64,000 bases of DNA from Candidatus Versatilivorator sp. (GCA_965198125.1 CBDAOQ010000003.1:2447953-2511952), one strand, 5' to 3'; shown: positions 1-24,043, counted from the first letter of the stretch. Notes: generated from the sequence alone by a model not told the origin. Made by a program: numbers and translations.

Positions 1-2459
1 GCATCGAGGTGGCGGCGACGCTGCTGTTGCTGCCGTGGGCCTGGGGCGACTTCTCTCGCGCGCACGGTGAGCTGGCCGTCTTCATGACGACCAAGCTGGT
101 CGGGTTTGCCGCCAGCGCCGGCCTGTTGCTGTGGGCCGGGCGCGGGGACTGGCGGACCTGGCTGCTTGGGGTCTATTGCCTCCTCAAGGCCACCAACCAG
201 CCGCTGTACATGCTCCAGGCCTTTTTCCTGGAGCTGCCGCCGCCGCCGGAGTACGCGGCCTTTCTCCAGCAGCTGCCCGCTGCCAACCGGGTCTTCAGCG
301 CCCTCTACGTTCCCGCGTTCCTGTTCGCGCCGGCCTTCCTGTGGGCGTTTGCCCGCGAGTGCCCGCGGGTCCATCGCCGGACCTGGCTCGATGATCTGGC
401 GCGTCGCATGATCCCGGTCAGCGTGCTGATCGGTGGCGGCCTCTGGCTCGCCTGCGCCGTGACGCTGGAGCTGGCGCGGGCGGGCGCTGTGGGGGCGCCG
501 GTCGCCCTGGTGCTCGATGGCACGCTCGCCACCCTGGACCTGCTGGGGCTGGGGGCGGTCACCCTCGTCGCGCTGCGTGCGCACACGGCGTCGCCCGACG
601 AGGTGCGGCGCGTCGTGGTGTTCAGTGCCGGGTTCCTCCTCTTCATGGGAGTCGCGGCCGTCTACGACCTGGCCGAGGCGTTCGCGCCCGGGGACTGGGT
701 GTCCAATTACCGCTGGTCGCCGACGATTCTGCTGATCGAGGTGCTGCGCTTTCCCGGGTTGATCCTGCTCTGGTACGCGGTGCTGGCGGCGCGCATTCCC
801 CACCTGCGGGAGGCGGTGCGGGCGGTCTACCGCCGGTTGTTGATGCGCCCGGGCCTGCTCGGGGCGGCGGCCGCCGTGCCCGCCGGGGCGCTGCTGTGGC
901 TGATCGGGCGCAACCCGGAGCGCGAGGTGGGCGCGCTCATTGCGGATCCGCTGGCGCAGTCGCTGTTCGCAGCCGTCGGGATCCTGCTGCTGCTGATCGC
1001 CGCCCGGGAACGCATCCTGATCCGCCTGGACGCCTGGATCCTCCCCGAGACCGCAGACCAGCGGCAGGCCCTGGCCGATGCGGCAGGCACCTTGGCGCAG
1101 GCCGGGCGGATCACGACCGTCGGCGAGACCGTCACCCGGACGGTGCGGCGCGGTTGCGGCTCGCCCGCGACCCTGCTGGTTGCGGACGCCGCCGAGACCC
1201 ACGCGGGCGGTTTCAGCGCCCCGCAGGCCCGCATCGCGCCCCTGCCGCGCCAGGCGGCCATCGTCCACCTGCTGGAGACCGCCGGCGGGCCCGTGCGGGT
1301 CGACCCCAACGGCCAGCCGTCGGTCTTCCCCTTGCTGCCGCCCGATGAAGCGGCCTGGGTCACCGAGACGGGCGCCGACGTGATCGTGCCGGTTCCCGGT
1401 CCGGGGACGGACGTCCTCGGGGTTCTGGTGGTGAGCCGCCGCCTCGACGGCCGCCTGGTACGCTCGGTCGACCTGCCGTTCCTGGAGGCGCTCGGTGCGG
1501 CCGCCGGGTTGGCGCTGGCGCGCCTGCAACTGCTCGACGCGCCGGGCGCGGGGTCGGGGGAGGCGCCGCCGGCCGAGGAGTGTCCCGTCTGCCGATCGGT
1601 GACCGAGGCCGGCGAGCCGCCCGCGTGCGCCTGCGGGTCGGCCTACGTCGCCACGGAGGTCCCCAAGCTTCTCGCCGGCAAGTTCCGCCTGACGCGGCGC
1701 CTGGGGGCCGGGGGGATGGGAGCGGTCTACCTGGCGCGCGACCTGCGTCTGGAGCGCGACGTGGCGATCAAGATCCTGACGGCGCGGTCCCTCGGCCGCC
1801 TGATGGGGCTCAAACCGGAAGCCTGGGCCATGACGATGGTGACGCATCCGGGGGTGGCCCAGGTCCACGGCGTCGAGTCCTGGCGGGGCCGCCCGTTACT
1901 GGTCGTCGAGTTCCTGGCCGGCGGCACCCTCGAGGATCGGCTGCGGGACGGGCCGCTGGCGCCCTCGCAGGCGGTGTCTGTCGTCGCCCGGCTGGCCGGC
2001 GCCCTGGCGGCCCTGCACGAGAAGGGCTTCCTGCACGGGGACGTCAAGCCCAGCAACATCGGGTTCACCTCGGAGGGGTCGCCGAAGCTGCTGGATTTCG
2101 GGCTGGCGCACGCGGTGGACGACGCCGCCATGGTGGGCGGCACCCTGCCCTACCTCTCGCCCGAGGTGCTCGGCGGCCGCCCGGCCGAGGAAGCCGACGA
2201 TGTCTGGTCGTTGGCCGTGGTCCTCTACGAAATGGTGTCGGGCCGGCATCCCTTCGCCGGCGGCGCCCCCGACGCCGTGCGGCGCCGCATCCGCCGCCAG
2301 CGCCTCGCGGCCGGCGGGCCTGCCGCATCCGCCGCGCCGACATCGGCGACGGCCGTGGCCTCCTTCGCGGCGTCGATCCTGACGGCCCCCCGGTCGCGGC
2401 GGCCGGGGACCGCGCCCGCCTTCGCCGCGGCGCTGGCCGCCCTCTCCGGGGACGCGTAG
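1..2459 (+). CDS. Membrane-anchored sensor Ser/Thr protein kinase (Hanks-type); 5' end likely runs off the window start
   Basis: Open frame from base 1 (track start at 9 is GTG). N-terminal ~300 aa with multiple hydrophobic helices, a GAF-like soluble region, a CPVC..CAC zinc-ribbon motif, then kinase motifs GAGGMGAVYLA, VAIK, HGDVKPSNIG, DFGLA, SPE. Confidence 0.8.
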   Translation, partial: IEVAATLLLLPWAWGDFSRAHGELAVFMTTKLVGFAASAGLLLWAGRGDWRTWLLGVYCLLKATNQPLYMLQAFFLELPPPPEYAAFLQQLPAANRVFSALYVPAFLFAPAFLWAFARECPRVHRRTWLDDLARRMIPVSVLIGGGLWLACAVTLELARAGAVGAPVALVLDGTLATLDLLGLGAVTLVALRAHTASPDEVRRVVVFSAGFLLFMGVAAVYDLAEAFAPGDWVSNYRWSPTILLIEVLRFPGLILLWYAVLAARIPHLREAVRAVYRRLLMRPGLLGAAAAVPAGALLWLIGRNPEREVGALIADPLAQSLFAAVGILLLLIAARERILIRLDAWILPETADQRQALADAAGTLAQAGRITTVGETVTRTVRRGCGSPATLLVADAAETHAGGFSAPQARIAPLPRQAAIVHLLETAGGPVRVDPNGQPSVFPLLPPDEAAWVTETGADVIVPVPGPGTDVLGVLVVSRRLDGRLVRSVDLPFLEALGAAAGLALARLQLLDAPGAGSGEAPPAEECPVCRSVTEAGEPPACACGSAYVATEVPKLLAGKFRLTRRLGAGGMGAVYLARDLRLERDVAIKILTARSLGRLMGLKPEAWAMTMVTHPGVAQVHGVESWRGRPLLVVEFLAGGTLEDRLRDGPLAPSQAVSVVARLAGALAALHEKGFLHGDVKPSNIGFTSEGSPKLLDFGLAHAVDDAAMVGGTLPYLSPEVLGGRPAEEADDVWSLAVVLYEMVSGRHPFAGGAPDAVRRRIRRQRLAAGGPAASAAPTSATAVASFAASILTAPRSRRPGTAPAFAAALAALSGDA

Positions 2460-2638: not shown

Positions 2639-5600
2639 GTGCATATGACCCACTACGCCCCCCGGATCACGTCACCCGCCAGGGCGGCGCGGCCCCGGAC
2701 GCGACGCATACACCCGCTCGCGGCGACCCTCGTCCTCGCCACCGCCGCACTGCTTGCCACGCCCGATCCCGCCCAGGCGCAGGCCTGCCCCGCCCCCACC
2801 CTCACCGGCCGCCAGCAGATCTGGACCGGCACGGTGACGGTGGGGACGCGGATAGCCGGTGGACGAACTTCGTATTACGGCTTCGAGGCTACTACTGATC
2901 CCACGACCGGGGCGCTTTCCGACACGATGTTCGACATCGGATCGAACAGCCATACGATCGTACGCATCTTTGTGGACGCGGACGGCGACGTCGGGGCACT
3001 AGAATTCGGCCTGTCTTCGAGCCTCACAACCATTGAGGTGGCAAGCCTCAGGCTGCACGTCTGCGGCGTCGACTACGACTTCGCCGATGCCACGACCTTT
3101 GGGACCCAACCCACCTACTACTGGGACTCCGCGGGCCTCGACTGGTCCTCGGTGACGAGTCGCACCCTATACCTGAGCGTGCCCGCGGCGGCCGCCAGCA
3201 CCCCCGCGGCGGGCGCGCCGACGATCACGGGCAGGGCGCAGGTGGGCCAGACGCTGACGGTGGTCACCACCGGCATCATGGACGCCGACGGGCTGGCCAG
3301 CCCCAGCTACACCTACCAGTGGATCCGGGTGGACACCGACAGCACCGAGACGGACATCTCCGGGGCGACGTCGGACCTCTACTACCCGGTCGCCGCCGAC
3401 GAGGGCACGACGATCAAGGTGAAGGTGAGCTTCACCGACGACGCCAGCAATGCCGAGACGCGCACCAGCGTGGCGACGGGGACGGTGGCGGAGGCGCAGG
3501 GCGACCCTGAAGAGCCGTGTCCAGGAGGCGGCTATAACCCGACGCCGGTGGCGGTGGCGGTGACGGCGGTGCCCATCGTGGTCGCATCCACGACTGCGGA
3601 CTACTTCGTGCTGTATGTGCGGCATACGGTCGGTGAGACCACCACGGTGGAGGTGCCGGTCTTGGTGACCTTGGGGAAAGCGGACACGACCACGCTGGCC
3701 GAGAACGTGGAGGCTCTGCCTGGGGAGCGCTACCGGGTGGAGAAGTATCTCATCACCGACCCTGCCGACGTCGATGGTGACTGCGTCGACGACATCACCG
3801 AACTCGGGGACCCGGTGGGCATGAACCCGGTGAACCCTGCCCCGGCCATCGCATTCAGCGACGGCGCCGTGGCCATTCCCGACCGGGAAACATTCGAAAC
3901 GCTCGCCTTCCATCAGGAGACTGTCAAGTTCGTTCTGATCGGCATGGACACGGACAGGCCGGGTGTCTACTTCTCGGCCACCGACACGCACCGGGGCCAT
4001 CCGTCCTTCCTGGATGCCGTAGGGATCGATCGGGACCAGTCCGGGCTGGTCACTGGTTGGATCGTTCATGACTCGAAACTCGTTGCCCCCGATGGCAGCC
4101 AAGGAGTCTACTATTACCAGCTTCTGCCGAGGAATACTGGTGCTGGCTTCAGCCTTTTGTCGCGCTCCTATACGCTGCTCGCGGCCAGTATGCCGCTGCT
4201 CGATGAAAACCTGGCCTTGCATATAAGTAACGACGAGCTTCGCTCTCTGCGGTCCAGCCTGTCGCTGTACAGGGAATCCCGCATTGCCCTCGTGTTCGAC
4301 GACGACGTCCTCCGTGGGGCCGACTTCCTGGCGTTGAATCCGGGAGAAGGATTCGGCTTACTGCGTTCACTGGACCCGGACGAGCGTCCTACCCCCCGTG
4401 ACGTGGTGATCTACGAGACTCTGCCCAACAACCTGCCCCGTGTCGCTGGCATCATCTCCACCGTGCCCCAAACCCCGCTGTCGCATGTCAACCTGCGCGC
4501 CGTGCAGGACGGCATTCCCAACGCCTTCATCCGCAACGCCCTGGAAGACACCGACATCGAGCCTCTCATCGGCAGCTACGTCCACTACACGGTGACCCAG
4601 CAGTTGCGGCCTTTGCTCGCCGGATCGCCGCCCGGCCCCCCGGACGGATGGGCCCTGCGCGCCGCCACTCTCGCCCAAGTCGAGGCCCACTACGCCGCTT
4701 CCCGGCCCTCCCAAGCACAGACGCCGGAATTCGATCTCTCGGTCACGGGGATCAAGCCCCTCAGCGAGATCGGTTTCGAGGACTGGAAGGCGTTCGGCGT
4801 CAAGGCGGCGAACGTGGCCGTGCTGGGTACGCTGGGGTTTCCGGCGGGGACCGTCCCCGCCGGGTTTGCGATCCCGTTCTATTTCTACGACGAGTTCATG
4901 AAGCACAACGACTTCTACACTCGCATTGACACGATGCTGGCCGACCCCGATTTCCAGTCGAAATTCGACACCCAGGATGACATGCTCGATGATCTGCGCG
5001 ACGACATCAAGGACGCGGAGACGCCGCCGTGGATCATCGCGGCGATCGTGGAGATGAATGAGGGGTTTTCCGAGGGGATCAATCGGCGCTACCGGTCCAG
5101 CACCAACAACGAGGACCTGCCGGGGTTCAACGGCGCCGGACTGTACGACTCCAAGAGCCAGAAGCCCAGTGAGGACGAGGATGACCTCGCCAAGTCCCTC
5201 AAGGAGGTGTACGCCAGCCTGTGGAACTTCCGCGCCTTCATCGAACGCGACTTCCATCGCATTGACCACAAGGCGGCCGCGATGGGGGTGCTGGTGCATC
5301 CCAGCTACCAGGACGAGCTGGCCAACGGTGTCGCCGTCAGCTTTGACCCTATCTACGGCGGGGACGAGCGCTACTACGTCAACACACAGCTTGGGGAAGA
5401 TCTGGTCACCAATCCCGACGCGCAATCGGTGCCGGAGGAAATCCTGTTGCATCGAAGCGGCGGTAATTACAGTGTCCTTGCGACCTCCAACCAGGTGCCG
5501 CCGGGGCAACTGCTCATGAGAAACTCCCAACTGAATCAGTTGGCCGATCGCCTCACTGTGATCCATGACCACTTCAAGGCGCTGTACAACCCCGCCCCCG

Positions 5601-8600
5601 ATGAACCGTTTGCCATGGAGATCGAGTTCAAGATCACCAGCGAAGACATCCTGGCGATCAAGCAGGCCCGCCCCTGGGTCTTCGATAACGCTCGCGACGC
5701 GCCATCCCCGCCACCACCTCCACCGGCCAACACCCCCGCGACGGGGGCGCCGACGATCACGGGGACGGCGCGGGTGGGCGAGACGCTGACGGCGGCCACC
5801 ACCGGCATCATGGACGCCGACGGGCTGACCAGCCCCAGCTACACCTACCAGTGGATCCGGGTGATCAGCAGCGTGGATGCCGACATCTCGGGCGCGACGT
5901 CGAGCACCTACACCCTGGTCGCCGCCGACCTGGGCACGACGATCAAGGTGAAGGTGAGCTTCACCGACGACGACGGCGATGCCGAGACGCGCACCAGCGC
6001 GGCGACGGCGACGGTGGTCGCGGCGATGGCGACCAACACCCCCGCGACGGGGGCGCCGACGATCACGGGGACGGCCCAGGTGGGTCAGACGCTGACGGCG
6101 GTCACCACCGGCATCATGGACGCGGACGGGCTGACCAGCCCCAGCTACACCTACCAGTGGATCCGGGTGATCAGCAGCACGGATGCCGACATCTCGGGCG
6201 CGACGTCGAGCACTTACACCCTGGTCGCCGCCGATGCGGACACGACGATCAAGGTGAAGGTGAGCTTCGAAGACGACAACAGCAATGCCGAGACGCGCAC
6301 CAGCGCGACCACGGCGACGGTGGTCGCGGCGATGGCGACCAACACCCCGGCGACGGGGGCGCCGACTATCACGGGGACGGCCCAGGTGGGCGAGACGCTG
6401 ACGGCGGTCACCACCGGCATCAGTGACGCCGACGGGCTGGCCAGCCCCACCTACACCTACCAGTGGATCCGGGTCGAGACCGACAGCACCGAGACGGACA
6501 TCTCCGGGGCGACGGCGAGCACCTACACCCTGGTCGCCGCCGACCTGGGCAAGACGCTCAAGGTCAAGGTGACCTTCACCGACGACGCCAGCAATTCCGA
6601 GACGCGCACCAGCGCGGCGACGGCGGTGGTGGCGTCGGCGGCGACGACGCCGACGATCTCGGCGGTGGCGGTCACCTCCACGCCGCAGCTTGAGACCGAC
6701 ACCTACGGCGAGGGCGAGGAGATCCAGTTCACGGTGACGTTCAGCGAGGCCGTCACGGTGACGGGCATGCCGCAGTTCGTGTTCTCGCTCGGCAATGCAG
6801 GCGACACGCGGCGGGTCAACGCCGGGTACGACCCGGCCGCCAGCACGGACACTGAGCTGGTGTTCGCCTACACGGTGGTGTCCACGGACGAGGACGACAA
6901 CGGCATTTTCATCCTCGACGATGCGACGGTGTCCGGGACGGCGGGCAGCGGCTCGATCGTGCTGGGCTTGGACGGGAGCATCGTCGGCAAGACGTCGGAG
7001 GTGCCGGCCTCGCTGGCGCACAGCGTGCGCGGCGCCCAGTCCGGTCACAAGGTGGACGGGGTCCGGCCGAGTTTCCTGAGCGCGGCGGTGGATGGAGCCT
7101 CTCTGACACTGACCTACGACGAGCCGCTGGACGGGAGCTCAACGCCTGATGCGGGAGACTTCACAGTGTCGGGGGGCGACTATACGCGGACGGTCACTCG
7201 TGTTTCGGTGAGCGGGAGCACGGTGGCTCTGACCTTGAATGTGGGGGCCGAGCACTTGGAGACGGGGATCCAGGTGAGCTACACGCCGGGGATGGAGCGG
7301 AAACGGCTGCGGGACGTGCCGGGCAATGAGGCCTTGGGGTTGAGCCGGGAGCCGGTGACCAACGATACCCCGGACACCACCTCACCGACGGTGAGCAGTC
7401 TGGTCATCACCTCGAACCCGGGCGGGGATCAGATCTACGCGGCGGGGGACGAGATCGAGTTGACGGTGACGTTCAGCGAGACGGTCGAGGTGGAGGGGAC
7501 GCCGCAGTTGAGGCTGCGAGTAGGGAGCAGGAACCGGACGGCCGGCTACCTGAGAGGCACGGACACGGCGGCGGTGGTGTTCGGCTACGAGGTGGCCGAG
7601 GGGGAAAGCGACACGGACGGGGTGGGCGTCGAGGCCGACAGCCTGACCGGGGGCACGATCCGGGACGGCGCGGACAATAACGCCCTGCTGTCCCACGACG
7701 GATTGGCAGCCGATGCGAGGCACAAGGTGGACGGGGTCCGGCCGAGTTTCCTGAGCGCGGCGGTGGATGGAGCCTCTCTGACGCTGACCTACGATGAGCC
7801 CCTGGACGGGAGCTCAACGCCTGATGCGGGAGACTTCACAGTGTCGGGGGGCGACTATACGCGGACGGTCACTCGTGTTTCGGTGAGCGGGAGCACGGTG
7901 GCTCTGACCTTGAATGTGGGGGCCGAGCACTTGGAGACGGGGATCCAGGTGAGCTACACGCCGGGGATGGAGCGGAAACGGCTGCGGGACGTGCCGGGCA
8001 ATGAGGCCTTGGGGTTGAGCCGGGAGCCGGTGACCAACGATACCCCGGACACCACCTCACCGACGGTGAGCAGTCTGGTCATCACCTCGAACCCCGGCGG
8101 GGATCAGATCTACGCGGCGGGGGAGGTAATCGAGTTGACGGTGCGGTTCAGCGAGACGGTGGTGGTGACCGGGACGCTGCGGTTGAGGCTGCGAGTAGGG
8201 AGCAGGAACCGGACGGCCGGCTACCTGAGAGGCACGGACACGGCGGCGGTGGTGTTCGGCTACGAGGTGGCCGAGGGGGAAAGCGACACGGACGGGGTGG
8301 GCGTCGAGGCCGACAGCCTGACCGGGGGCACGATCCGGGACGGCGCGGACAATAACGCCCTGCTGTCCCACGACGGATTGGCAGCCGATGCGAGGCACAA
8401 GGTGGACGGGGTCCGGCCGAGTTTCCTGAGCGCGGCGGTGGATGGAGCCTCTCTGACGCTGACCTATGGAGAGGGACTGGACGAAGGGTCGAGGCCGGCG
8501 CCGGGGGACTTCACGGTGGAGGTGGACGGGAGCGGGCGAAGCGTTTCGGGCGTCTCGGTCAGCGGGAGCGTGGTGACGCTGACCCTCGACCCGGCGGTCG

Positions 8601-11600
8601 AGCACGGGGATACGGGGATTCGGGTGAGCTACACGGTTCCGACAGGGGCGGGGGCGAACCCGATCCGGGATGCAGTCGGGAACAATGCTCGCGGACTGAG
8701 CAACCGGTCGGTGACCAACACCACGGGAGCGCCAAACACGGCGCCTGAGATCACGACCCGGGGACCGCTCAGCGTTGGGGAGAACCTGGCGGTGGTGAGA
8801 CGGCTGGCGGCACGGGACACCGACCCGGGGGACGAGGTGACGGGCTGGGAGATTGTGGGCGGGGCCGACCAATCTCAGTTCTCGATGGCTTCCGATACGG
8901 GGGAGCTGAGCTTCCAGACGCCGCCGGACTACGAGGACCCCACCGATGAGGCGAGCACCGATCCACCGAGCGGGGCTGGAGACAACGAGTACGTGGTGAG
9001 GGTGGAAGTGAGGAGCGGTGCGGGAGTCAGGGAACTGGAGGCGGAGCAGACGTTCACGATCAGGGTGACCGATGAGCGGGAACCGCCGGAAGTGCCGGAG
9101 GCGCCGGTCATTTCGGGGGAGACGGCCGACAGCCTGACGGTGAGTTGGAGCGAGCCGGAGAACACCGGACCGGCGATCACCGACTACGACGTCCAGTACC
9201 GGGAGAAGGGCACGGGGCGCTTCATTGACGGGGACCAGCAAGGACCAGGGCGTACCTTGACGCTTTCGGACCTGGAACCGGGGACGGTCTATGAGGTGCA
9301 AGTGCGGGCCACCAACGACGAGGGGACAAGCGACTGGTCGGAGTCGGGGGAGGGGATGACCATCACGCCGGTGACGCTTGAGATGATGGCGATGGAAGAG
9401 CCGCCGGTGTCGGGGCCATTCACGGTGCGGTTCAGCTTCTCGGAGCCGGTGACGGGGTTTGGCGGGAGCGATGTCGAGACGGGTCAGGACCCAGCCTGCG
9501 TGGACGACCAGAACAACACGGTTTTCTGCGATCCGGGGATTGGGGCCTTGCAGACGGCCGATGACCGGGTCTTCACCACCACGGTAACGCCCGGGACCGA
9601 CCGTGTGGCCCACAGCTACACGTTGACACTGACGGTTCCGGGAGGGGCTGTGAGGTCGTCGGTGGGCAGCAAGCCCAACGAGGAGCCCGAGGAGCCGCTC
9701 GAGGTTCGGGTGTCGCCGCCGGGAGTGGAGGAGCCGATTTCGTCTCTGGGTCTAAGGACCAGCGGTGGGAATGGAACAGTGAGGCTGAGCTGGAACCTGC
9801 CGTCGGATAACGGAGGCTCAGCCATCATCCGCTACGAGTATCGGTTTGCACCCGCAGGAGAGGCGTGGAGTGAGTGGGAGAATGTGGGAGCGGGGACGAG
9901 CGGGGTGATGGTGGGAAACCTGATCAACGGCCGGGAATACGTCTTTGAGGTGCGTGCGGTCAATGCGTTGGGCAAGGGCGGGGCGGAGACGGTGCAGGCA
10001 ACGCCGGAGCGGCGGATTACGCCGAGGTCCCCGCCCCCCGGGGGCGGCGGCGGCGGAGGTGGCGGTGGCGGAGGCCTGCTGTTTCCTCCGGGGGCGCCGG
10101 CGAGCCTGATGGCGATGGCCGGGGAGGGAGCGGTGCGGCTGGAGTGGAGTCCGCCCGAAAGCGACGGGGGCACCCCGATCCTGCGCTATGAGTACCGTCT
10201 GAAGGAGGGGAGAGGACAGTTTGGTGAGTGGACCCCGATCGCAGACAGCGCCCCCGATGAGGTCAACGCCGCAGGGTATACGGTCGAGGGACTTGGCAAC
10301 GGGACGGTCTATGTCTTTGAGCTGCGCGGGGTCAACCTGGTGGGCGAGGGGCCGGTATCGGAGGCGGTGGAGGTGGTGATGGGGCTGGATCGGGCCTATG
10401 GGTCGAACTTCCTGGCCGGAGATCTGCAGGGGGGTGAGGCCAGTCTGGAGCGGGGGCCGTTTGGGGGAGGACCGCAAAGTCTGAGGCTGCGGTTTGGAGC
10501 GGGGCTGCGGTTTGAGGAGAGTGAGCTGGACGGGGAAGGGGAGGTGACCGAGACCCGGTTGGGCAGCTACGGGTACCGCTACACGAGCCGGACGACGGGG
10601 GAGTTGAGTCTGGACTACGACGGAGGAGAGGCCTGCGAGGTGCGGCTGACCTTCAGTGGAGAGGGAGCGGGCAGCTACAGCTACCGCTGCGGGGGAGCCT
10701 TGCGGGGACAGGGGAGCTTCCGCTTGACGGGGCTGAACCGGGGGCCGGAGGTCACCAGCACAGGTCCTTTCGAGGTGGTTGAGAACCAGGCGATGGTGGG
10801 GCAGCTGGAGGCGGCGGACCCGGACGAGGGGGACGGGATCACGGGATACGGGATCGCGGGGGGAGCGGACGGGGCGCTGTTTGCGGTTGTTGGGGAGACG
10901 GGGGAGCTGATGTTCCGGGAGGCGCCGGACTATGAGACTCCGGGAGATGTAGCCAGTGAGGATCCCCAAAGCGGAGCAGCAGACAACGAATACATTGTAG
11001 TGGTAGAGGTCAGGAGCGGAGAAGGAGAGAGGGAGAGGAAGGGGAGCCGTGCGATCCGTGTACGGGTGAGTGACGAGGAGGAACCGCCGGAGATCACCAG
11101 CGTAGGTCCGTTCGAGGTCATGGAGAACACCACAACGGTAGTGCAGCTGGAGGCGGCGGACCCGGACGAGGGGGACGAGGTCACGGGATACGGGATCGCG
11201 GGGGGAGCCGACGGAGCGCTGTTTGCGGTGGTTGAGGAGACGGGGGAGTTGCTGTTCCGGGAGGCGCCGGACTACGAGGATCCGGGAGATGTGGAGAACG
11301 CGGAACCGGCAAGCGGAGCGGGAGACAACGAATACATTGTAGTGGTCGAGGTGAGGAGCGGTGAGGGGGAGAGGGAGCGGAAGGGGAGGCGGGCGATCCG
11401 GGTGCGGGTTGCTGACGAGGAGGAGCCGCCGGAGATTACCAGCCCGGGCCCGTTCGAGGTGGTGGAGAACCAGGCGAGGGTGGGGCAACTGGAGGCGGTA
11501 GACCAGGACAAGCAGGACGAGATTACAGAGTATGGGATAGCGGGGGGAGCGGACGGGGGGCTGTTCAGGGTGGTGGAGGAGACGGGGGAATTGATGTTCC

Positions 11601-14230
11601 GGGAGGCGCCGGACTACGAGACTCCGGGGGATGTGGAGAGCGAGGAACCTCAAAGCAGAGCAGCAGACAACGAATACATCGTGGTGGTAGAGGTCAGGAG
11701 CGGTGAGGGAGAGAGGGAGCGGAAGGGGAGCCGAGCGATCCGGGTGCGGGTCAGTGACGAGGAGGAGCCGCCGGAGATCACCAGTCTGGGCCCGTTCGAG
11801 GTCGTGGAGAACCAGACGAGGGTGGGGCAAGTGGAGGCGGTAGACCAGGACAAGCAGGACGAGATTACAGAGTACGGGATAGCGGGGGGAGCGGACGGGG
11901 GGCTGTTTGCGGTGGAAGCGGAGACGGGGGAGCTGCTGTTCCGGGAGGCGCCGGACTATGAGGCTCCGGGGGATGTAGCCAGTGACGATCCCCAGAGCGC
12001 AGCGGGGGACAACGAATACATCGTAGTGGTAGAGGTAAGGAGCGGTGAGGGAGAGAGGGAGCGGAAGGGGAGCCGAGCGATCCGGGTGCGGGTGAGTGAC
12101 GAGGAGGAGCCGCCGGGGGCACCGGCAGCGCCGGCGGTGACGGCGGAAGGCAGCGACAGTTTGAAGGTAAGCTGGAGAGAGCCGGAGAACCGAGGACCTG
12201 AGATCGTGGACTATGAGGTGCGCTACCGGGAGGCAGACGAGGCAGGTTACCGCGATGGGGGGCACGAGGGGAGGGGTCTGGAGGTGAGGCTGTCGGGGCT
12301 GAAGGAGGGGACGGTGTATGAGGTACAGGTGAGGGCGGTCAACCAGGAGGGGATGAGTGAGTGGTCGGAGCCGGGGGAAGGGCGGACGGACACGGAGGAG
12401 GCCGACCCGGAGGAACCGGACCCGGAGGATCCGTCGGACCTCACCGAGGGGGACCTGGAGGGGAGGCGTCTGACCCTGCGTCAAGCCGATGCAGACGGGA
12501 CCACACGAAGCCTTGAGCTGCGGTTTGGGGAGGACAACCGGTTCGAGCAGATCGAATCGGGGGGGCAGGAGGCCGCCACCCGGAGCGAGGACGCCTCCCG
12601 ATCGGGCACTTACACCTATGAGCAGATAGGCCCCCACATGGGAACGGTGAGCCTGGCCTACGATGACGGGGCCTCCTGCGAGCTCCGATTGAGCTTCACC
12701 GAGACGGGAGTGGGCGCGTTCGCCTTTGACTGCGGCGAGGGGGACCCGGCCGAGGGGAGCTTCCGGCTGACGACGGGGTCGTTGTTTGTTCCGGTGATTC
12801 TGTCGGCGGCGGGGCGCAGCAACTCCTTCTTCACTTCGGAACTGACGCTGACCAACCGGGGGGAGCGGGAGGTGAGGCTCGATTACGCCTACACGGCCCA
12901 CAGGGGAGGGGGCAGCGGGAAGACTTCTGATGTGCTTGCACCCGGCATGCAAAAGATCGAGACCGACGCCCTGACCTATCTGAGGGGTCTGGGGGTGCCG
13001 ATTCCGGAGACGGGCAACCGGATCGGGACGCTGAGGGTGGAGGCGCGGCTGGGGTCGGAGGTGGAGGCGGTGGTGCGGACGACCACGCTGGTGCCTGAGG
13101 GACGGGCGGGGCTGGCCTACCTGGGGGTAGCGGAGGAGGAGGGCTTTGACGAGGCGGTCTATCTGTGCGGGTTGCGGCAGAACAGCCGGGACCGCTCCAA
13201 CGTCGCCTTCCAGAACATGGGGGCAGAGGAAGAGGGTGCGATCACCGTGAGGACCACGGTGTATTCGGGGGAGGCGACAGACACCAATGCCCGGGTGCTG
13301 GAAGACATAGAGCTGGAGCCGGGAGGGTTTCACCAGTACTCGGGGCTGCTGGGCGTGCTGGGGGTTCCGGCCCAGGGCTACGTCAAGGTGGAGCGGGTGG
13401 AGGGGACCGCACCCTTCTACGCCTACGGGGTGATCAACGACCAGGCGAACTCGGACGGGTCGTTTGTCTTTCCGGTGACGGCGAGTTCTCTGGAGGGCAC
13501 GGCGGGGCAGACCCTGCCGGTGATTGTGGAGACGAGCGAGTTCACCAGCGAGCTGATGGTGACGAACTTCTCCGAGGAGCCCAGGAGGCTGGATTTCCAG
13601 TTTGTGGCCGAAGGGATCGAGGCGGACGACAAGACGGTGGGCTTCAGCATGGAGCTGGAAGCCGGCGAGCAGCAGATCATCCCTGAGCTGGTCGAAGAGC
13701 TGCGCCGCGAGGAGATGGCGGGACTGGGCACGACCCGGGGTTTCTATTTGGGACCGTTGTTGGTCACGGCCGAAGAGGGGGACCTGAGCGGGATCGTGAT
13801 CGGGGCCAGGACGGGCTCGGAGGGAGGCGGGGGACAATACAGCGTCTTCTACAACGCAGTGCCGGAGGGTGAGGCTTTCACGATGGAGGCTTGGGTGGAG
13901 GGACTGCAGCAGAATGAGGAGAACCGGAGCAACCTGGCGCTGGTCAACACCGGGGAGGTGGACGGGAGCGCCAGCGTCTTTCATCTGGAGATCTACGACG
14001 GAGAGACGGGGTTGCTGGCCGAGACGGTGGTGACCAAGCCGATCCCGGCCCGGGGCTGGCATCAGATCAACGGGATTTTGGGCAGCTACGCCCCGGAGAC
14101 CCGGCAGGGGTACATCCGGATCGAGAAGGTGTCGGGGCAGAACCCCTTCCTGGCCTACGGGGTGGTCAACGACGGCGGAGCCCCGGGAGAGCGGAGCGGA
14201 GACGGAGCTTATCTGCCGGCCCGGGAGTAG
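2639..14230 (+). CDS. Giant secreted multi-repeat surface protein (3863 aa): signal peptide, YTYQW-type Ig-like repeats, PEP-utilizing His domain + PPDK_N ATP-grasp-like module, SwmB/Big-like 225-aa repeats, cadherin-like repeats, four FN3 domains, triplicated C-terminal beta-rich domain
   Basis: Single 11.6-kb ORF with coherent domain content end to end. N-terminus MHMTHYAPRITSPARAARPRTRRIHPLAATLVLATAALLATPDPAQAQA looks like a Sec signal peptide. Motif AGIISTVPQTPLSHVNLRAVQDGIPNAFIRNA fits the PEP-utilizing mobile domain. FGVKAANVAVLGTLGFPAGTVPAGFAIPFYFY fits the PPDK-type PEP/pyruvate-binding ATP-grasp N-domain. Cadherin-like units carry DYE motifs; FN3 units end in VYEVQVRA. Confidence 0.85.
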   Translation: MHMTHYAPRITSPARAARPRTRRIHPLAATLVLATAALLATPDPAQAQACPAPTLTGRQQIWTGTVTVGTRIAGGRTSYYGFEATTDPTTGALSDTMFDIGSNSHTIVRIFVDADGDVGALEFGLSSSLTTIEVASLRLHVCGVDYDFADATTFGTQPTYYWDSAGLDWSSVTSRTLYLSVPAAAASTPAAGAPTITGRAQVGQTLTVVTTGIMDADGLASPSYTYQWIRVDTDSTETDISGATSDLYYPVAADEGTTIKVKVSFTDDASNAETRTSVATGTVAEAQGDPEEPCPGGGYNPTPVAVAVTAVPIVVASTTADYFVLYVRHTVGETTTVEVPVLVTLGKADTTTLAENVEALPGERYRVEKYLITDPADVDGDCVDDITELGDPVGMNPVNPAPAIAFSDGAVAIPDRETFETLAFHQETVKFVLIGMDTDRPGVYFSATDTHRGHPSFLDAVGIDRDQSGLVTGWIVHDSKLVAPDGSQGVYYYQLLPRNTGAGFSLLSRSYTLLAASMPLLDENLALHISNDELRSLRSSLSLYRESRIALVFDDDVLRGADFLALNPGEGFGLLRSLDPDERPTPRDVVIYETLPNNLPRVAGIISTVPQTPLSHVNLRAVQDGIPNAFIRNALEDTDIEPLIGSYVHYTVTQQLRPLLAGSPPGPPDGWALRAATLAQVEAHYAASRPSQAQTPEFDLSVTGIKPLSEIGFEDWKAFGVKAANVAVLGTLGFPAGTVPAGFAIPFYFYDEFMKHNDFYTRIDTMLADPDFQSKFDTQDDMLDDLRDDIKDAETPPWIIAAIVEMNEGFSEGINRRYRSSTNNEDLPGFNGAGLYDSKSQKPSEDEDDLAKSLKEVYASLWNFRAFIERDFHRIDHKAAAMGVLVHPSYQDELANGVAVSFDPIYGGDERYYVNTQLGEDLVTNPDAQSVPEEILLHRSGGNYSVLATSNQVPPGQLLMRNSQLNQLADRLTVIHDHFKALYNPAPDEPFAMEIEFKITSEDILAIKQARPWVFDNARDAPSPPPPPPANTPATGAPTITGTARVGETLTAATTGIMDADGLTSPSYTYQWIRVISSVDADISGATSSTYTLVAADLGTTIKVKVSFTDDDGDAETRTSAATATVVAAMATNTPATGAPTITGTAQVGQTLTAVTTGIMDADGLTSPSYTYQWIRVISSTDADISGATSSTYTLVAADADTTIKVKVSFEDDNSNAETRTSATTATVVAAMATNTPATGAPTITGTAQVGETLTAVTTGISDADGLASPTYTYQWIRVETDSTETDISGATASTYTLVAADLGKTLKVKVTFTDDASNSETRTSAATAVVASAATTPTISAVAVTSTPQLETDTYGEGEEIQFTVTFSEAVTVTGMPQFVFSLGNAGDTRRVNAGYDPAASTDTELVFAYTVVSTDEDDNGIFILDDATVSGTAGSGSIVLGLDGSIVGKTSEVPASLAHSVRGAQSGHKVDGVRPSFLSAAVDGASLTLTYDEPLDGSSTPDAGDFTVSGGDYTRTVTRVSVSGSTVALTLNVGAEHLETGIQVSYTPGMERKRLRDVPGNEALGLSREPVTNDTPDTTSPTVSSLVITSNPGGDQIYAAGDEIELTVTFSETVEVEGTPQLRLRVGSRNRTAGYLRGTDTAAVVFGYEVAEGESDTDGVGVEADSLTGGTIRDGADNNALLSHDGLAADARHKVDGVRPSFLSAAVDGASLTLTYDEPLDGSSTPDAGDFTVSGGDYTRTVTRVSVSGSTVALTLNVGAEHLETGIQVSYTPGMERKRLRDVPGNEALGLSREPVTNDTPDTTSPTVSSLVITSNPGGDQIYAAGEVIELTVRFSETVVVTGTLRLRLRVGSRNRTAGYLRGTDTAAVVFGYEVAEGESDTDGVGVEADSLTGGTIRDGADNNALLSHDGLAADARHKVDGVRPSFLSAAVDGASLTLTYGEGLDEGSRPAPGDFTVEVDGSGRSVSGVSVSGSVVTLTLDPAVEHGDTGIRVSYTVPTGAGANPIRDAVGNNARGLSNRSVTNTTGAPNTAPEITTRGPLSVGENLAVVRRLAARDTDPGDEVTGWEIVGGADQSQFSMASDTGELSFQTPPDYEDPTDEASTDPPSGAGDNEYVVRVEVRSGAGVRELEAEQTFTIRVTDEREPPEVPEAPVISGETADSLTVSWSEPENTGPAITDYDVQYREKGTGRFIDGDQQGPGRTLTLSDLEPGTVYEVQVRATNDEGTSDWSESGEGMTITPVTLEMMAMEEPPVSGPFTVRFSFSEPVTGFGGSDVETGQDPACVDDQNNTVFCDPGIGALQTADDRVFTTTVTPGTDRVAHSYTLTLTVPGGAVRSSVGSKPNEEPEEPLEVRVSPPGVEEPISSLGLRTSGGNGTVRLSWNLPSDNGGSAIIRYEYRFAPAGEAWSEWENVGAGTSGVMVGNLINGREYVFEVRAVNALGKGGAETVQATPERRITPRSPPPGGGGGGGGGGGGLLFPPGAPASLMAMAGEGAVRLEWSPPESDGGTPILRYEYRLKEGRGQFGEWTPIADSAPDEVNAAGYTVEGLGNGTVYVFELRGVNLVGEGPVSEAVEVVMGLDRAYGSNFLAGDLQGGEASLERGPFGGGPQSLRLRFGAGLRFEESELDGEGEVTETRLGSYGYRYTSRTTGELSLDYDGGEACEVRLTFSGEGAGSYSYRCGGALRGQGSFRLTGLNRGPEVTSTGPFEVVENQAMVGQLEAADPDEGDGITGYGIAGGADGALFAVVGETGELMFREAPDYETPGDVASEDPQSGAADNEYIVVVEVRSGEGERERKGSRAIRVRVSDEEEPPEITSVGPFEVMENTTTVVQLEAADPDEGDEVTGYGIAGGADGALFAVVEETGELLFREAPDYEDPGDVENAEPASGAGDNEYIVVVEVRSGEGERERKGRRAIRVRVADEEEPPEITSPGPFEVVENQARVGQLEAVDQDKQDEITEYGIAGGADGGLFRVVEETGELMFREAPDYETPGDVESEEPQSRAADNEYIVVVEVRSGEGERERKGSRAIRVRVSDEEEPPEITSLGPFEVVENQTRVGQVEAVDQDKQDEITEYGIAGGADGGLFAVEAETGELLFREAPDYEAPGDVASDDPQSAAGDNEYIVVVEVRSGEGERERKGSRAIRVRVSDEEEPPGAPAAPAVTAEGSDSLKVSWREPENRGPEIVDYEVRYREADEAGYRDGGHEGRGLEVRLSGLKEGTVYEVQVRAVNQEGMSEWSEPGEGRTDTEEADPEEPDPEDPSDLTEGDLEGRRLTLRQADADGTTRSLELRFGEDNRFEQIESGGQEAATRSEDASRSGTYTYEQIGPHMGTVSLAYDDGASCELRLSFTETGVGAFAFDCGEGDPAEGSFRLTTGSLFVPVILSAAGRSNSFFTSELTLTNRGEREVRLDYAYTAHRGGGSGKTSDVLAPGMQKIETDALTYLRGLGVPIPETGNRIGTLRVEARLGSEVEAVVRTTTLVPEGRAGLAYLGVAEEEGFDEAVYLCGLRQNSRDRSNVAFQNMGAEEEGAITVRTTVYSGEATDTNARVLEDIELEPGGFHQYSGLLGVLGVPAQGYVKVERVEGTAPFYAYGVINDQANSDGSFVFPVTASSLEGTAGQTLPVIVETSEFTSELMVTNFSEEPRRLDFQFVAEGIEADDKTVGFSMELEAGEQQIIPELVEELRREEMAGLGTTRGFYLGPLLVTAEEGDLSGIVIGARTGSEGGGGQYSVFYNAVPEGEAFTMEAWVEGLQQNEENRSNLALVNTGEVDGSASVFHLEIYDGETGLLAETVVTKPIPARGWHQINGILGSYAPETRQGYIRIEKVSGQNPFLAYGVVNDGGAPGERSGDGAYLPARE
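5729..6646 (+). repeat. Intragenic tandem repeat, 3 x 306 bp (102-aa YTYQW Ig-like units); a diverged fourth copy lies near 3187-3495
   Basis: Unit starts near 5731, 6037 and 6343 (PATGAPTITGTAQVG...SYTYQWIRV...TTIKVKVSF); DNA identity between units is about 90%. Confidence 0.7.
7046..8470 (+). repeat. Intragenic near-identical tandem repeat, 2 x 675 bp plus about 75 bp of a third unit
   Basis: CACAAGGTGGACGGGGTCCGGCC recurs at 7046, 7721 and 8396. Antisense track ORFs 7194..7385 and 7869..8060 encode identical peptides, so the units are close to 100% identical at DNA level. Confidence 0.85.
10039..10074 (+). repeat. Simple GGN repeat encoding a 12-residue poly-glycine linker
   Basis: ggg ggc ggc ggc ggc gga ggt ggc ggt ggc gga ggc, in frame within the giant ORF (PPPGGGGGGGGGGGGLL). 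Confidence 0.8.
10748..12115 (+). repeat. Intragenic tandem repeat, 4 x 342 bp (114-aa cadherin-like units); a diverged fifth unit lies near 8740-9080
   Basis: Unit boundaries at GAGGTCACC / GAGATCACC / GAGATTACC / GAGATCACC (10748, 11090, 11432, 11774). Each encodes ...GPFEVVEN...TGYGIAGGADG.LF.V..ETGEL.FREAPDYE...DNEYIVVVEV.... Confidence 0.75.
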
Positions 14231-19309: not shown

Positions 19310-19407
19310 AAATAGAGAGCTTCTTACCTCAGGGGGTGCGCTCCGTCCGAAAGGCAGCCGCCAACCGGTGGCTTCGGTCGGTCATACACGACCCGCATTG
19401 GAGAACC

Positions 19408-23222: not shown

Positions 23223-23275
23223 GGGGACAACCGCGCCCGTCAAACAGCGCCGGCCCGGCCGGCCCGGGGGAGACC

Positions 23276-24043
23276 ATGAAAATCCTGGTTTTGAATCCTT
23301 TCGCAGGCGGCATGCAGGAGCTGGAGCGGTGCCGGCAGGTGGCGGGACCGGACACCGAAATCGTGTTCGAGGACATTTCCGATGTCTATCCCTTGAGCTA
23401 CGTCACCTACATCTACTATCGCCACCGCTGCGCCGACGCCGTGGCCGAGCGGGCCTGCCGGGCCCAGGAGGAAGGCTTCGACGCCCTGTTCATCTGTTGC
23501 TGCTACGATCCGGGCCTGTGGGAAGCCCGCGAGCTGGTGGACATCCCGGTGACGGCGGCCTTCGAGGCCGGATGCCACTACGCCAACGCCATCTCTCAGA
23601 GATACTCGGTCATTGCCACCGAATACAAGACGGTGCACTGCTACCGCGAGCTGGCTCAACTCTACGGGGCCGGCTCCAAGCTGGCCTCGGTGAGGCATAT
23701 CCACCTGTCGGCCAGGGAGTCCTATCCGGATCGCACCGATCCCAAGGAGGTGGTGGCGCGGACGCTGGAGGTGGCTCAGAAGTGCGTGGAGGAGGACGGG
23801 GCCGAAGCCATCCTCATGGGTTGCACCCTGCAGAGCTGCCCGCTGACGGTCACCGGCGTGGACGATTCACTGGGCGCCCCCATCATTGACCCCGTGCTGG
23901 TGGGCGTCAAATTCACCGAGTTCATGGTGGAGGCCAGGCGGGCGGGATTACCGGTATTGAGTCGTTTCGGTACCTGGCAGAAGCCGCCGCGGGACGAGGT
24001 GGAGATACTGCGGCAGGCAAGGGTGCGGGCCGGGAGCGGCTAA
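23276..24043 (+). CDS. Asp/Glu/hydantoin racemase superfamily protein (hydantoin racemase-like)
   Basis: MKILVLNPF...GFDALFICCCYDPGL...EAILMGCT pattern with two catalytic Cys regions, typical of PF01177; GGGGGA 6 nt upstream of the ATG. Confidence 0.7.
   Translation: MKILVLNPFAGGMQELERCRQVAGPDTEIVFEDISDVYPLSYVTYIYYRHRCADAVAERACRAQEEGFDALFICCCYDPGLWEARELVDIPVTAAFEAGCHYANAISQRYSVIATEYKTVHCYRELAQLYGAGSKLASVRHIHLSARESYPDRTDPKEVVARTLEVAQKCVEEDGAEAILMGCTLQSCPLTVTGVDDSLGAPIIDPVLVGVKFTEFMVEARRAGLPVLSRFGTWQKPPRDEVEILRQARVRAGSG

Follow-up and report, generated by a model that had tools for sequence, protein, structure and literature searches.

A conserved dikinase-type module in a giant, predicted exported repeat protein of Candidatus Versatilivorator sp.

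Plant glucan,water dikinase (GWD) carries a phosphohistidine (His) domain directly N-terminal to its ATP-binding domain (PMC13553574), and GWD-type chemistry converts ATP, an acceptor hydroxyl and water into AMP, the phosphorylated acceptor and Pi (PMC13553574, PMC12892837). GWD1 and PWD of plants and algae, together with their bacterial homologues, consist of a substrate-binding region, a phosphohistidine domain and a C-terminal PPDK_N ATP-grasp domain; the substrate of the plant enzyme is starch. PEP synthase and PPDK, on the other hand, run from the ATP-grasp through the His domain to a PEP/pyruvate TIM barrel, and rifampin phosphotransferase (RPH) runs from the ATP-grasp through a rifampin-binding domain to the His domain, with Lys22, Arg117 and Thr136 shown to matter by mutagenesis (PMC4844700); in the HpeI/AcvAB phenol kinases, HpeI is a separate subunit. 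These characterised relatives (PEP synthase, PPDK, RPH, GWD and HpeI) are intracellular, with GWD being plastidial or cytoplasmic and RPH and the phenol kinases cytoplasmic, whereas the family that we describe here is predicted to be exported.

The window, by which we mean the whole 64,000-nucleotide stretch of Candidatus Versatilivorator sp. DNA that was analysed, encodes a giant open reading frame whose parts are as follows.

2639..14230, + strand: giant ORF of 3,863 aa comprising, from N to C, a signal peptide, an N-terminal domain, an Ig-like repeat, the dikinase module, an Ig/SWM/cadherin/FN3 stalk and a C-terminal region
2639..2785, + strand: predicted Sec-type signal peptide, aa 1-49, assigned by eye from the translation
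3506..5698, + strand: dikinase module, aa 290-1020, about 730 aa, the unit common to the whole family
3518..3838, + strand: sub-region 1 of the module, aa 294-400, beta-rich, with C294, C382 and an acidic DVDGDCVDDITE loop
3839..4315, + strand: sub-region 2, aa ~401-559, alpha/beta, candidate acceptor-binding domain
4316..4708, + strand: phosphohistidine swivel domain, aa ~560-690, with the predicted phospho-carrier His616 at nt 4484-4486
4793..5686, + strand: PPDK/PEP-synthase-type ATP-grasp domain, aa 719-1016, with K722, R819, S838, E994/E996, Q1009 and R1011
5699..5728, + strand: poly-proline linker between head and stalk, aa 1021-1030
5729..14227, + strand: stalk of three Ig-like (SCAB-Ig/AIR9-type) repeats, SWM-type repeats, cadherin and fn3

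The initial annotation described 2639..14230 as a single ORF in which phosphotransfer domains lie within a signal-bearing, adhesin-like giant protein, and our findings agree on both points. The frame is unbroken in the sequence given, and its translation begins with an Arg-rich N-region, a hydrophobic LAATLVLATAALLA segment and an AQA-QA cleavage motif, the features of a predicted signal peptide. The stalk matches the Pfam families fn3 (E 1e-50), SWM_repeat (7e-39), Cadherin (7e-33) and Ig-like (SCAB-Ig/AIR9), while its last ~480 aa are C-terminal repeats without a domain assignment. Judged by these signal features and extracellular repeat domains, the product is a predicted exported, adhesin-like giant repeat protein.

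The proposed PPDK-type ATP-grasp domain was confirmed by several matches. PPDK_N (PF01326) was found with an E value of 7.9e-25 when the whole protein was searched and of 2e-26 for a sub-segment (88.2-93.5 bits against a curated cutoff of 27 bits), with aa 719-1016 spanning profile positions 4-312 of 328, and both the NCBIfam models and the PDB chains of PEP synthase and RPH match the same stretch, which identifies a fold of the PEP synthase/RPH type. When we compared 221 modules of 45-99% identity from many phyla, we found that the catalytic residues are nearly invariant: R819 is present in all 221, K722, S838 and Q1009 in 220 each, and H616, E994, E996 and R1011 in 219 each. R819 and S838 align with Arg117 and Thr136 of RPH, while K722 was assigned to RPH Lys22, short of which the RPH alignment stops, via a common G-x-K-x-x-N motif aligned with PEP synthase 9dae; the Glu equivalents (RPH Glu297) were placed by motif only.

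The accompanying claim of a PEP-utilizers swivel domain stands by fold and by profile-profile evidence but not by the family's own HMM, as PF00391 matched neither the window segment nor any of 27 family members at E<=10, and searching the PDB by sequence profile with the His region yielded nothing. An AF2 model of the whole module (741 aa, 50 close homologues) was poor, with a pLDDT of 51, whereas a better model was obtained for aa 551-1030 with 118 more diverse sequences. In the latter, His616 (model residue 66) starts helix 66-74, which is followed by strand 78-81, in keeping with a swivelling beta/beta/alpha fold; its motif reads L-S-H instead of T-S-H. Among Pfam families, GWD1_pHisD (PF22973) alone recurs in the His region; real GWDs carry it, and it matched five of the 27 family members weakly (best E 0.0098) and the window sequence not at all. 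Profile comparison with the His domain alone was weak (E 0.003-0.006), while hhalign of the family against real GWD sequences gave a collinear alignment over 316 columns (probability 97%, E 1.2e-10; family columns 12-375 against GWD columns 211-545) that places LSH on LSH. Because the fold and the profile-profile evidence both point to a swivel domain, we let them override the PF00391 result, which in the terms of the initial annotation formally speaks against it.

The order of the two domains is indeed reversed relative to PEP synthase, PPDK and RPH, but it is not without precedent as had been supposed, since a His domain followed by an ATP-binding domain is the order of GWD (PMC13553574), and the catalytic LSH-V of GWD aligns with the LSH-V of the family. 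On the other hand, neither of the starch-binding modules CBM45 and CBM20 was detected by Pfam in the window protein, unlike in GWD and PWD, the CFATC redox motif of GWD is absent, and the RSS..EDLPGFNGAGLYDS motif occupies a PEP-synthase-like position in the module but lies later in the domain in GWD and is hence non-collinear. Comparison of the N-terminal region with a GWD alignment, in which the central domain was represented by its C-terminal part, gave an hhalign E of 0.27, and pairwise identity is low. We therefore rejected plain GWD membership on the missing CBMs, the undetected central domain and the non-collinear nucleotide-loop motif. Membership of PEP synthase/PPDK, which share the PPDK_N domain and the swivel phosphohistidine fold, was rejected on the missing TIM barrel (no PEP-utilizers_C barrel was detected by Pfam in the window protein) and on an NF005057 score of 72.7 bits against a cutoff of 598; RPH membership was rejected on the reversed order and on NF041857, which reached 47.5 bits against a cutoff of 999 over the ATP-grasp only, and the module lacks a rifampin-binding domain. 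Cytoplasmic Streptomyces proteins likewise have the order His domain, then ATP-grasp, together with the TPLSH motif; among them, a collinear His domain and ATP-grasp occur in WP_331760287.1 (670 aa, NZ_CP109451.1), an uncharacterised "PEP/pyruvate-binding domain-containing protein" that is 27% identical to the module over 545 aligned positions (BLASTP E 2e-30) and shares with it LP..PRVAG..T.P.TPLSH.N..A..GIPNA. It differs in its N-terminal ~170 aa, lacks a signal peptide and repeats, and is cytoplasmic by context, adjoining an ATP-grasp protein and an MFS transporter.

The span originally flagged, aa ~575-1010, captured the right domains but not their start, as the conserved unit begins ~285 residues upstream, at aa 290 (nt 3506), and consists of a new N-terminal region, then the His domain, then the ATP-grasp. 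The best 120 database matches show 65-74% identity across about 98% of this module, and it was matched as one unit in 78 genome loci and, at identities as low as 45%, in the best 150 representatives. The entire 730-aa unit, N-terminal region included, is kept in lineages ranging from sponge-symbiont MAGs to Bacteroidota (42% identity, module residues 22-725), and this joint conservation argues that the N-terminal region would be functionally coupled to the phosphotransfer domains. No binding fold was recognised in the N-terminal region (aa ~294-559), and the alpha/beta sub-region 2 matches no assigned fold; sub-region 1 (aa 294-400) gave no Pfam match and was modelled by AF2 with low confidence. 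Sub-region 1 holds the family's only conserved cysteines, C294 and C382 (frequencies 0.84 and 0.91 among the 221 modules); 171 of the 221 modules have exactly two, and the catalytic domains have no conserved cysteine. If the module is active, this ~270-aa candidate acceptor region would be new ground for enzyme discovery.

A one-off fusion is not borne out by our sequence comparisons: the window protein is one member of a very large exported family, with more than 2,000 matches in the database search and over 1,100 clusters when grouped at 50% identity. Homologues occur in many other MAGs, often within giant repeat proteins. Modules 57-74% identical to that of the window are found in MAGs from seven or more phyla, one of them a Cenarchaeum archaeon, a spread that points to inter-phylum transfer. 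Modules from different phyla are 85-92% identical to one another, with 69% between the archaeon and bacteria, which marks the module as a trait that these MAGs share horizontally. Several of the module-carrying lineages are known sponge symbionts, and Cenarchaeum is a sponge-symbiont genus.

Export is, as far as sequence features can tell, a trait of the whole family. By a crude Kyte-Doolittle proxy, 174 of the 206 family proteins whose module is preceded by at least 25 aa have a hydrophobic signal region; the module shares its polypeptide with extracellular repeats such as fn3 and cadherin, among which it may be N-terminal, internal or C-terminal; and, independently, the Bacteroidota branch (42-45% identical; members recovered from Aureispira, Saprospiraceae and a groundwater Bacteroidetes MAG) combines it with a Por_Secre_tail type IX secretion domain. 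The cysteine pattern fits this picture. Genes conserved beside the module were looked for in 78 loci and three Bacteroidota genomes; other giant repeat proteins or type IX cargo were the sole finding, and the module therefore probably works on its own. A search for the full module on phages or plasmids found none. In the literature, we found no description of a secreted or sponge-associated dikinase, and comparative-genomics papers on sponge symbionts make no mention of the module; this exported dikinase-type family is undescribed and unnamed.

A giant ORF of this kind could be an assembly chimera in which a dikinase gene was joined to the stalk of another giant gene, a concern raised at the outset. 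In a sister contig of 97-99% identity, the head gene ends after about 1,160 aa, the window stalk (7103-14230) shares 84-88% identity with that of a different, Reprolysin-headed giant protein in that contig, and the stalk contains long exact repeats. However, the sister-contig gene runs on through three Ig repeats into an SWM-type repeat before being cut by an AT-rich, Mu-like prophage end with three GAAAGCGGGAACC repeats. We read this stop as an insertion into a longer gene. ORFs of 2,000-5,177 aa that combine the module with these repeat types, moreover, occur in many long-read MAG chromosomes, and Pfam domains are in frame along the entire 3,863-aa ORF. On the strength of the long-read ORFs and the prophage insertion we rejected a chimera as the main explanation and consider it extremely unlikely.

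Since the catalytic residues are nearly invariant, we favour the surface-displayed, kinase-like enzyme that had been offered as one of two possibilities, and we lean, with modest confidence, towards aa 290-1020 acting as the catalytic head of an "acceptor,water dikinase" that is exported and either displayed on the surface or released, with the rest of the protein serving as an adhesin-like stalk. By analogy with GWD, RPH and PPDK, the C-terminal ATP-grasp domain would bind Mg-ATP, and His616 of the swivel domain would attack the beta-phosphate, with AMP leaving and the gamma-phosphate passing to water as Pi. The phospho-His domain would then swing to the N-terminal region (aa ~294-559), the putative acceptor site, and phosphorylate a hydroxyl of an extracellular acceptor, while the stalk (Ig, SWM, cadherin, fn3) would keep the head off the cell, or against host matrix or a particle. 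Our guess, again by analogy with GWD, is that this acceptor may be a polymer, insoluble or part of a matrix, for instance a glycan.

Extracellular ATP is scarce, and ATP-dependent enzymes are not expected outside the cell. This scarcity, and the variable placement of the module in repeat proteins, as with a binding domain, would suit a pseudo-enzyme that serves as a rigid binding or structural head for a nucleotide-like or phosphorylated host ligand, the other possibility originally offered. We hold such a non-catalytic role to be distinctly improbable, as pseudo-enzymes usually lose the ATP-phosphate- and Mg-binding residues and the phospho-carrier His that are kept in at least 219 of the 221 modules across many phyla. 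A catalytic head might instead be mainly an ATP pyrophosphohydrolase (ATP + 2 H2O -> AMP + 2 Pi) with water as final acceptor, which would clear danger or purinergic signals of the host, or serve to scavenge phosphate, with no specific target phosphorylated. RPH variants incapable of modifying the drug retain ATP turnover (PMC4844700), sponge canal responses are triggered by ATP and ADP but not AMP (PMC11883242), a dikinase takes ATP straight to AMP, and the family is widespread in MAGs, some of their lineages being known sponge symbionts, all of which would agree with such a consumer, as would the failure to recognise an acceptor-binding fold in the N-terminal region. We nonetheless find it unlikely: the co-conservation of the ~270-aa region across phyla (42% in Bacteroidota) is hard to explain without a bound acceptor, simpler secreted nucleotidases exist, and Aureispira, Saprospiraceae and the groundwater Bacteroidetes MAG give no hint of a host whose purinergic system would need silencing. 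It is rather improbable, in our estimate, that the enzyme is an extracellular small-molecule kinase that inactivates or marks, for example, a holobiont secondary metabolite in the manner of RPH or HpeI/AcvAB.

Extracellular ATP is present and signalling in sponge tissue (PMC11883242), which is circumstantial for the module. An exported dikinase might use ATP from host matrix or lysis to phosphorylate a host or matrix polymer, or turn signalling ATP into inert AMP, and might have moved among unrelated symbionts (seven or more bacterial phyla plus the Cenarchaeum archaeon) as a shared host-interaction tool on interchangeable adhesin stalks; we put this forward tentatively, as a possible but doubtful extension. 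If true, the His-swivel dikinase superfamily would have its first exported member, and this member would represent a new class of symbiosis factor. An active module would make ATP-driven phosphorylation outside cells a common microbial strategy and provide a new enzymatic handle on symbiont modification of host matrix or purinergic signalling. The question of activity is directly testable in the homologue of the cultured Aureispira anguillae, P0494, an uncharacterised protein that automatic annotation names "PEP/pyruvate-binding domain-containing protein". At about 835 aa, P0494 lacks the adhesin stalk and the conserved Cys pair and ends in a Por_Secre_tail C-terminal sorting domain, and it carries all catalytic motifs within a module that is present in full (730 aa; 42% identity over module residues 22-725).

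The giant ORF (2639..14230, + strand; 3,863 codons) is uninterrupted, and the N-terminus of its product, read from the translation, resembles a Sec signal: it is rich in Arg at its beginning and continues with a hydrophobic stretch and AQA-QA. The initial annotation had described a Sec signal and an array of Ig-like, cadherin-like and FN3 repeats, and this is borne out by the translation and by Pfam, which finds four fn3, three SWM_repeat, five cadherin and several Ig-like (SCAB-Ig/AIR9-type) repeats. A PPDK/PEP-synthase-type nucleotide-binding domain, proposed at the same time, was recovered as a PPDK_N (PF01326) match at residues 719-1016 (Pfam; E 7.9e-25 with the whole protein, 2e-26 with a sub-segment). 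A database search with residues 290-1030 (741 residues) returned more than 2,000 matches, and the best 120 all share 65-99% identity with the query along about 98% of its length. When 1.84 billion cluster representatives were searched exhaustively, 1,168 clusters matched at E<1e-30, with the best 150 representatives matching across the module, whole or fragmentary, down to 45% identity. Since both sets of matches extend across this region, the real unit is a module of about 730 residues in four parts, and in short homologues the conserved block opens at 'CPGGG...', immediately behind the signal peptide. Two complete modules can occur in one ORF, as in a 2,670-aa ORF of an Aldehydirespirator MAG (L037 4350-12359) and the 3,227-aa protein P0143.

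Parts of the dikinase module (residues of the giant protein)
~294-400: part 1, beta-rich segment with an acidic DVDGDCVDDITE loop
~401-559: part 2, alpha/beta domain
~560-690: part 3, His domain
719-1016: part 4, ATP-grasp

The proposal of a PEP-utilizers swivel domain, for which a motif at residues 603-634 containing His616 (nt 4484-4486) had been quoted, held at the level of fold but not in the profile check, where PF00391 gave no match to the His region even at E<=10. A PDB search with a sequence profile of the His region from 27 family members found nothing, and PF22973 (GWD1_pHisD) was the sole recurring Pfam family there (5 of the 27 members, best E 0.0098). AlphaFold2 reached a pLDDT of 51 on the whole module, being confident only at module residues 110-270, and a pLDDT of 89.3 with a pTM of 0.88 on residues 551-1030 with 118 more diverse sequences. 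In the latter model, His616 opens a short helix and a strand comes next, which is the arrangement in glucan,water dikinase (GWD), rifampin phosphotransferase (RPH) and pyruvate,phosphate dikinase (PPDK) (PMC13553574). Since the placement of His616 matches theirs, the predicted structure indicates that the swivel domain is genuine at the fold level though the Pfam HMM misses it.

As first noted for PEP synthase and RPH, and likewise for PPDK, the domain order is reversed relative to these enzymes; the architecture is not undescribed, however, since the module shares its His domain to ATP-grasp order with GWD, which consists of two CBM45, a central domain, a His domain and an ATP-binding domain (PMC13553574). 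GWD sequences, retrieved with a potato GWD sequence as bait only and named GWD by their sources, carry PF01326 and PF22973. When the family profile for His domain plus ATP-grasp (221 sequences) was compared with a profile of 33 aligned GWD sequences, the probability was 97%, with E 1.2e-10 and 316 collinear columns, and family TPLSHVNLRA fell on GWD D.LSHV.VRA; the His region alone scored weakly against GWD (E 0.003-0.006). NCBIfam PEP-synthase and RPH models match the ATP-grasp part only, far under their equivalog cutoffs, and PDB sequence matches are to PEP synthase and RPH chains, restricted to ATP-grasp. On the other hand, the module differs from GWD in several respects: Pfam found neither CBM45 nor CBM20 in the window protein, the N-terminal region of the module lacks similarity to the GWD segment tested, and the family RYRSSTNNEDLPGFNGAGLYDS loop occupies the PEP synthase/RPH position, whereas the GWD look-alike motif comes later in the domain. 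GWD FRSDSNGEDL(E/P)G(Y/F)AGAGLYDS lies behind the WASKWNERA helix (protein P0288, residues 472-506 and 583-603), whereas family RSS..EDLPGFNGAGLYDS (residues 817-887 of the giant protein) lies ahead of the equivalent helix, as in PEP synthase and RPH, so that the two ATP-grasp domains carry a near-identical motif at places that are not collinear. A nearer relative than GWD is a cytoplasmic, uncharacterised 670-aa Streptomyces 'PEP/pyruvate-binding domain-containing protein', which aligns from the His-domain start to the ATP-grasp end at 27% identity (E 2e-30) and has LP..PRVAG..TPLSH..GIPNA in common with the family. On a linear plasmid of Streptomyces sp. NBC_01471 (L084 5073-9753), this relative is flanked by genes for an MFS transporter and a protein with an ATP-grasp domain. 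A NUDIX gene and one of the aminoglycoside phosphotransferase family are nearby, and the cluster may serve resistance or the modification of small molecules.

Across 221 modules (45-99% identity), R819 is present in all, K722, S838 and Q1009 in 220, and His616, E994, E996 and R1011 in 219. R819 and S838 correspond to Arg117 and Thr136 of RPH in the RPH alignment, and K722 was matched to RPH Lys22 through the G-x-K-x-x-N motif common to PEP synthase 9dae, as the RPH alignment stops short of Lys22. Mutants of RPH Lys22, Arg117 and Thr136 lose resistance or activity (PMC4844700). Judged from sequence, these residues behave as in a functional active site kept by purifying selection and not as in a pseudo-enzyme.

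Four lines of evidence speak for export of the family proteins. A hydrophobic signal region (by a crude Kyte-Doolittle proxy) occurs in 174 of the 206 proteins with at least 25 residues before the module, and in most of the others the start seems to have been mis-called. Fusion partners of the module include fn3, cadherin, Calx-beta-type and further extracellular repeats, and the module lies N-terminally, internally or C-terminally in ORFs whose lengths run from about 550 to beyond 5,177 aa. Exactly two cysteines are conserved in the 221 modules (C294 and C382), with none in the catalytic domains, a pattern that would be typical of folding in an oxidising compartment. Independent support comes from Bacteroidota, whose numerous ~835-aa proteins form the farthest branch recovered (about 45% identity) and pair the module with Por_Secre_tail, a C-terminal sorting domain for type IX secretion (T9SS signal logic, PMC12618676). 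One of them is from the cultured Aureispira anguillae (AP026867.1, 2.51 Mb region).

The continuity of head and stalk was examined in a sister-strain contig (L079; ena:ERZ25067264:ctg825872_13x_l), whose head is 97-99% identical to that of the window but whose gene stops after about 1,160 aa. The L079 gene passes three Ig repeats and enters the first SWM-type repeat (TPDTTAPTVSRVEITSLPG) before AT-rich DNA, which holds three GAAAGCGGGAACC repeats, followed by an S24 repressor, HTH genes, a DDE Mu transposase, MuB and DUF3164.

Insertion in the sister strain
L079 13300-23399: prophage insertion, at about window 6324-6700, read at the junction

A Mu-like prophage has thus inserted into what was a longer gene in L079, and this supports the continuity of head and stalk. 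Window 7103-14230, including stalk and C-terminal region, shares 84-88% DNA identity with L079 1-7676, the stalk of another giant protein headed by a Reprolysin-type metalloprotease with Calx-beta, and different enzymatic heads appear to have been exchanged on near-identical stalks. Since the L079 junction and the many long module-bearing ORFs in long-read MAGs speak against the chimeric assembly considered in the initial annotation, we regard an assembly artefact as highly improbable.

The distribution set comprised 566 confirmed stretches, one genome per GTDB species, from which 78 loci were kept, with modules 57-74% identical to that of the window. These belong to Acidobacteriota/Terriglobia, Latescibacterota, Binatia, Dehalococcoidia, Acidimicrobiia (Ca. 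Poriferisodalis and Ca. Aldehydirespirator), Thermodesulfobacteriota and one archaeon of Cenarchaeum, a sponge-symbiont genus. Poriferisodalaceae and Aldehydirespiratoraceae include sponge-symbiont lineages, a link at the family level (PMC11706023). Module identity reaches 92% between Thermodesulfobacteriota and Acidobacteriota, 90% between Binatia and Latescibacterota, 86% between Acidimicrobiia and Dehalococcoidia and 69% between the Cenarchaeum archaeon and Latescibacterota, and the best match of 34 of 86 modules lies in another phylum-level group. Since module similarity is independent of taxonomy, the comparisons indicate repeated horizontal transfer. Tandem paralogues are common, with two or three genes in tandem in several genomes (L015, L018, L036, L042, L046 and L070). 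The 78 loci have no conserved neighbour gene except other giant repeat proteins (37 of 78), Bacteroidota gene contexts are unrelated to one another, and no phage or plasmid carrier of the full module was found.

The domain identities, their order, the conservation and the export are shown, and the module is best explained as an exported acceptor,water dikinase, a reading to which we give somewhat better than an even chance and in which catalytic activity, phosphate donor and acceptor site are inferred. Mg-ATP would bind the ATP-grasp domain, His616 would take the beta-phosphate, leaving AMP, with the gamma-phosphate passing to water, and the swivel domain would carry the phosphate to the N-terminal region, which would phosphorylate an extracellular acceptor while the stalk positions the head. 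By analogy with GWD and from the stalk, our guess is that the acceptor may be a matrix or particle polymer. A non-catalytic binding head is improbable, as the active-site pattern stands against it.

The main difficulty for the dikinase reading is the ATP supply outside the cell, which lysed prey or host cells could provide. In a sponge, extracellular ATP acts as a signal, with ADP active and AMP not (PMC11883242), and an enzyme that simply consumes ATP to AMP, blunting purinergic signalling or scavenging phosphate, is unlikely, though the most plausible of the alternatives. That the head is a kinase acting on small molecules outside the cell, comparable to RPH or HpeI, is a slim prospect.

For the exported dikinase that we favour, the superfamily, the chemistry and the His to ATP-grasp order (from GWD) were already known. 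We found no description in the literature of this dikinase family, its systematic export or its cross-phylum spread among MAGs, sponge-symbiont lineages included, and pipelines label its members only 'PEP/pyruvate-binding domain-containing protein' or 'hypothetical protein'.

Several further features of the giant protein and the window were observed.

Residues 50-185 (window 2786-3193, + strand): ~135-aa domain directly behind the signal peptide and ahead of the first Ig-like repeat, outside the conserved module, without Pfam match
Residues 1470-1603 and 1695-1828 (window 7046-7447 and 7721-8122, + strand): exact 134-aa protein repeat in the SWM-repeat region
Residues 2468-2479 (window 10040-10075, + strand): 12 consecutive glycines in mixed GGN codons, between two fn3-containing stalk blocks
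Residues 3381-3863 (window 12779-14227, + strand): C-terminal ~480 aa, two related ~240-aa units (SLFVPVILSAAG... and TLPVIVETSEF...)
Window 9-2459 (+ strand): upstream ORF (816 aa) whose C-terminal domain is a Ser/Thr protein kinase (Pkinase E 2e-39)
Window 19336-24043: hydantoinase/oxoprolinase A and B subunits, then Asp/Glu/hydantoin racemase
Window 44378-44808 and 52116-52550: ~430-bp element, present twice, 87-92% identical to L079 7714-8147

The C-terminal region, common to the window protein and the other giant protein of the sister strain, matches nothing in Pfam, shows neither an evident membrane anchor nor a sorting motif, and is a candidate domain for secretion or for attachment to the cell surface. 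The copies of the 134-aa repeat are identical in DNA only over 62 bases from the repeat start, and assembly could have influenced their number, while the glycine run may be a flexible hinge or a slippage-prone site. In the sister strain, too, the dikinase gene is preceded by this kinase gene, and the ordinary metabolic genes at 19336-24043 show that the window is chromosomal. A small ORF that weakly matches DUF772 (transposase) overlaps L079 7714-8147, and the ~430-bp element is probably an IS remnant repeated in the genome.
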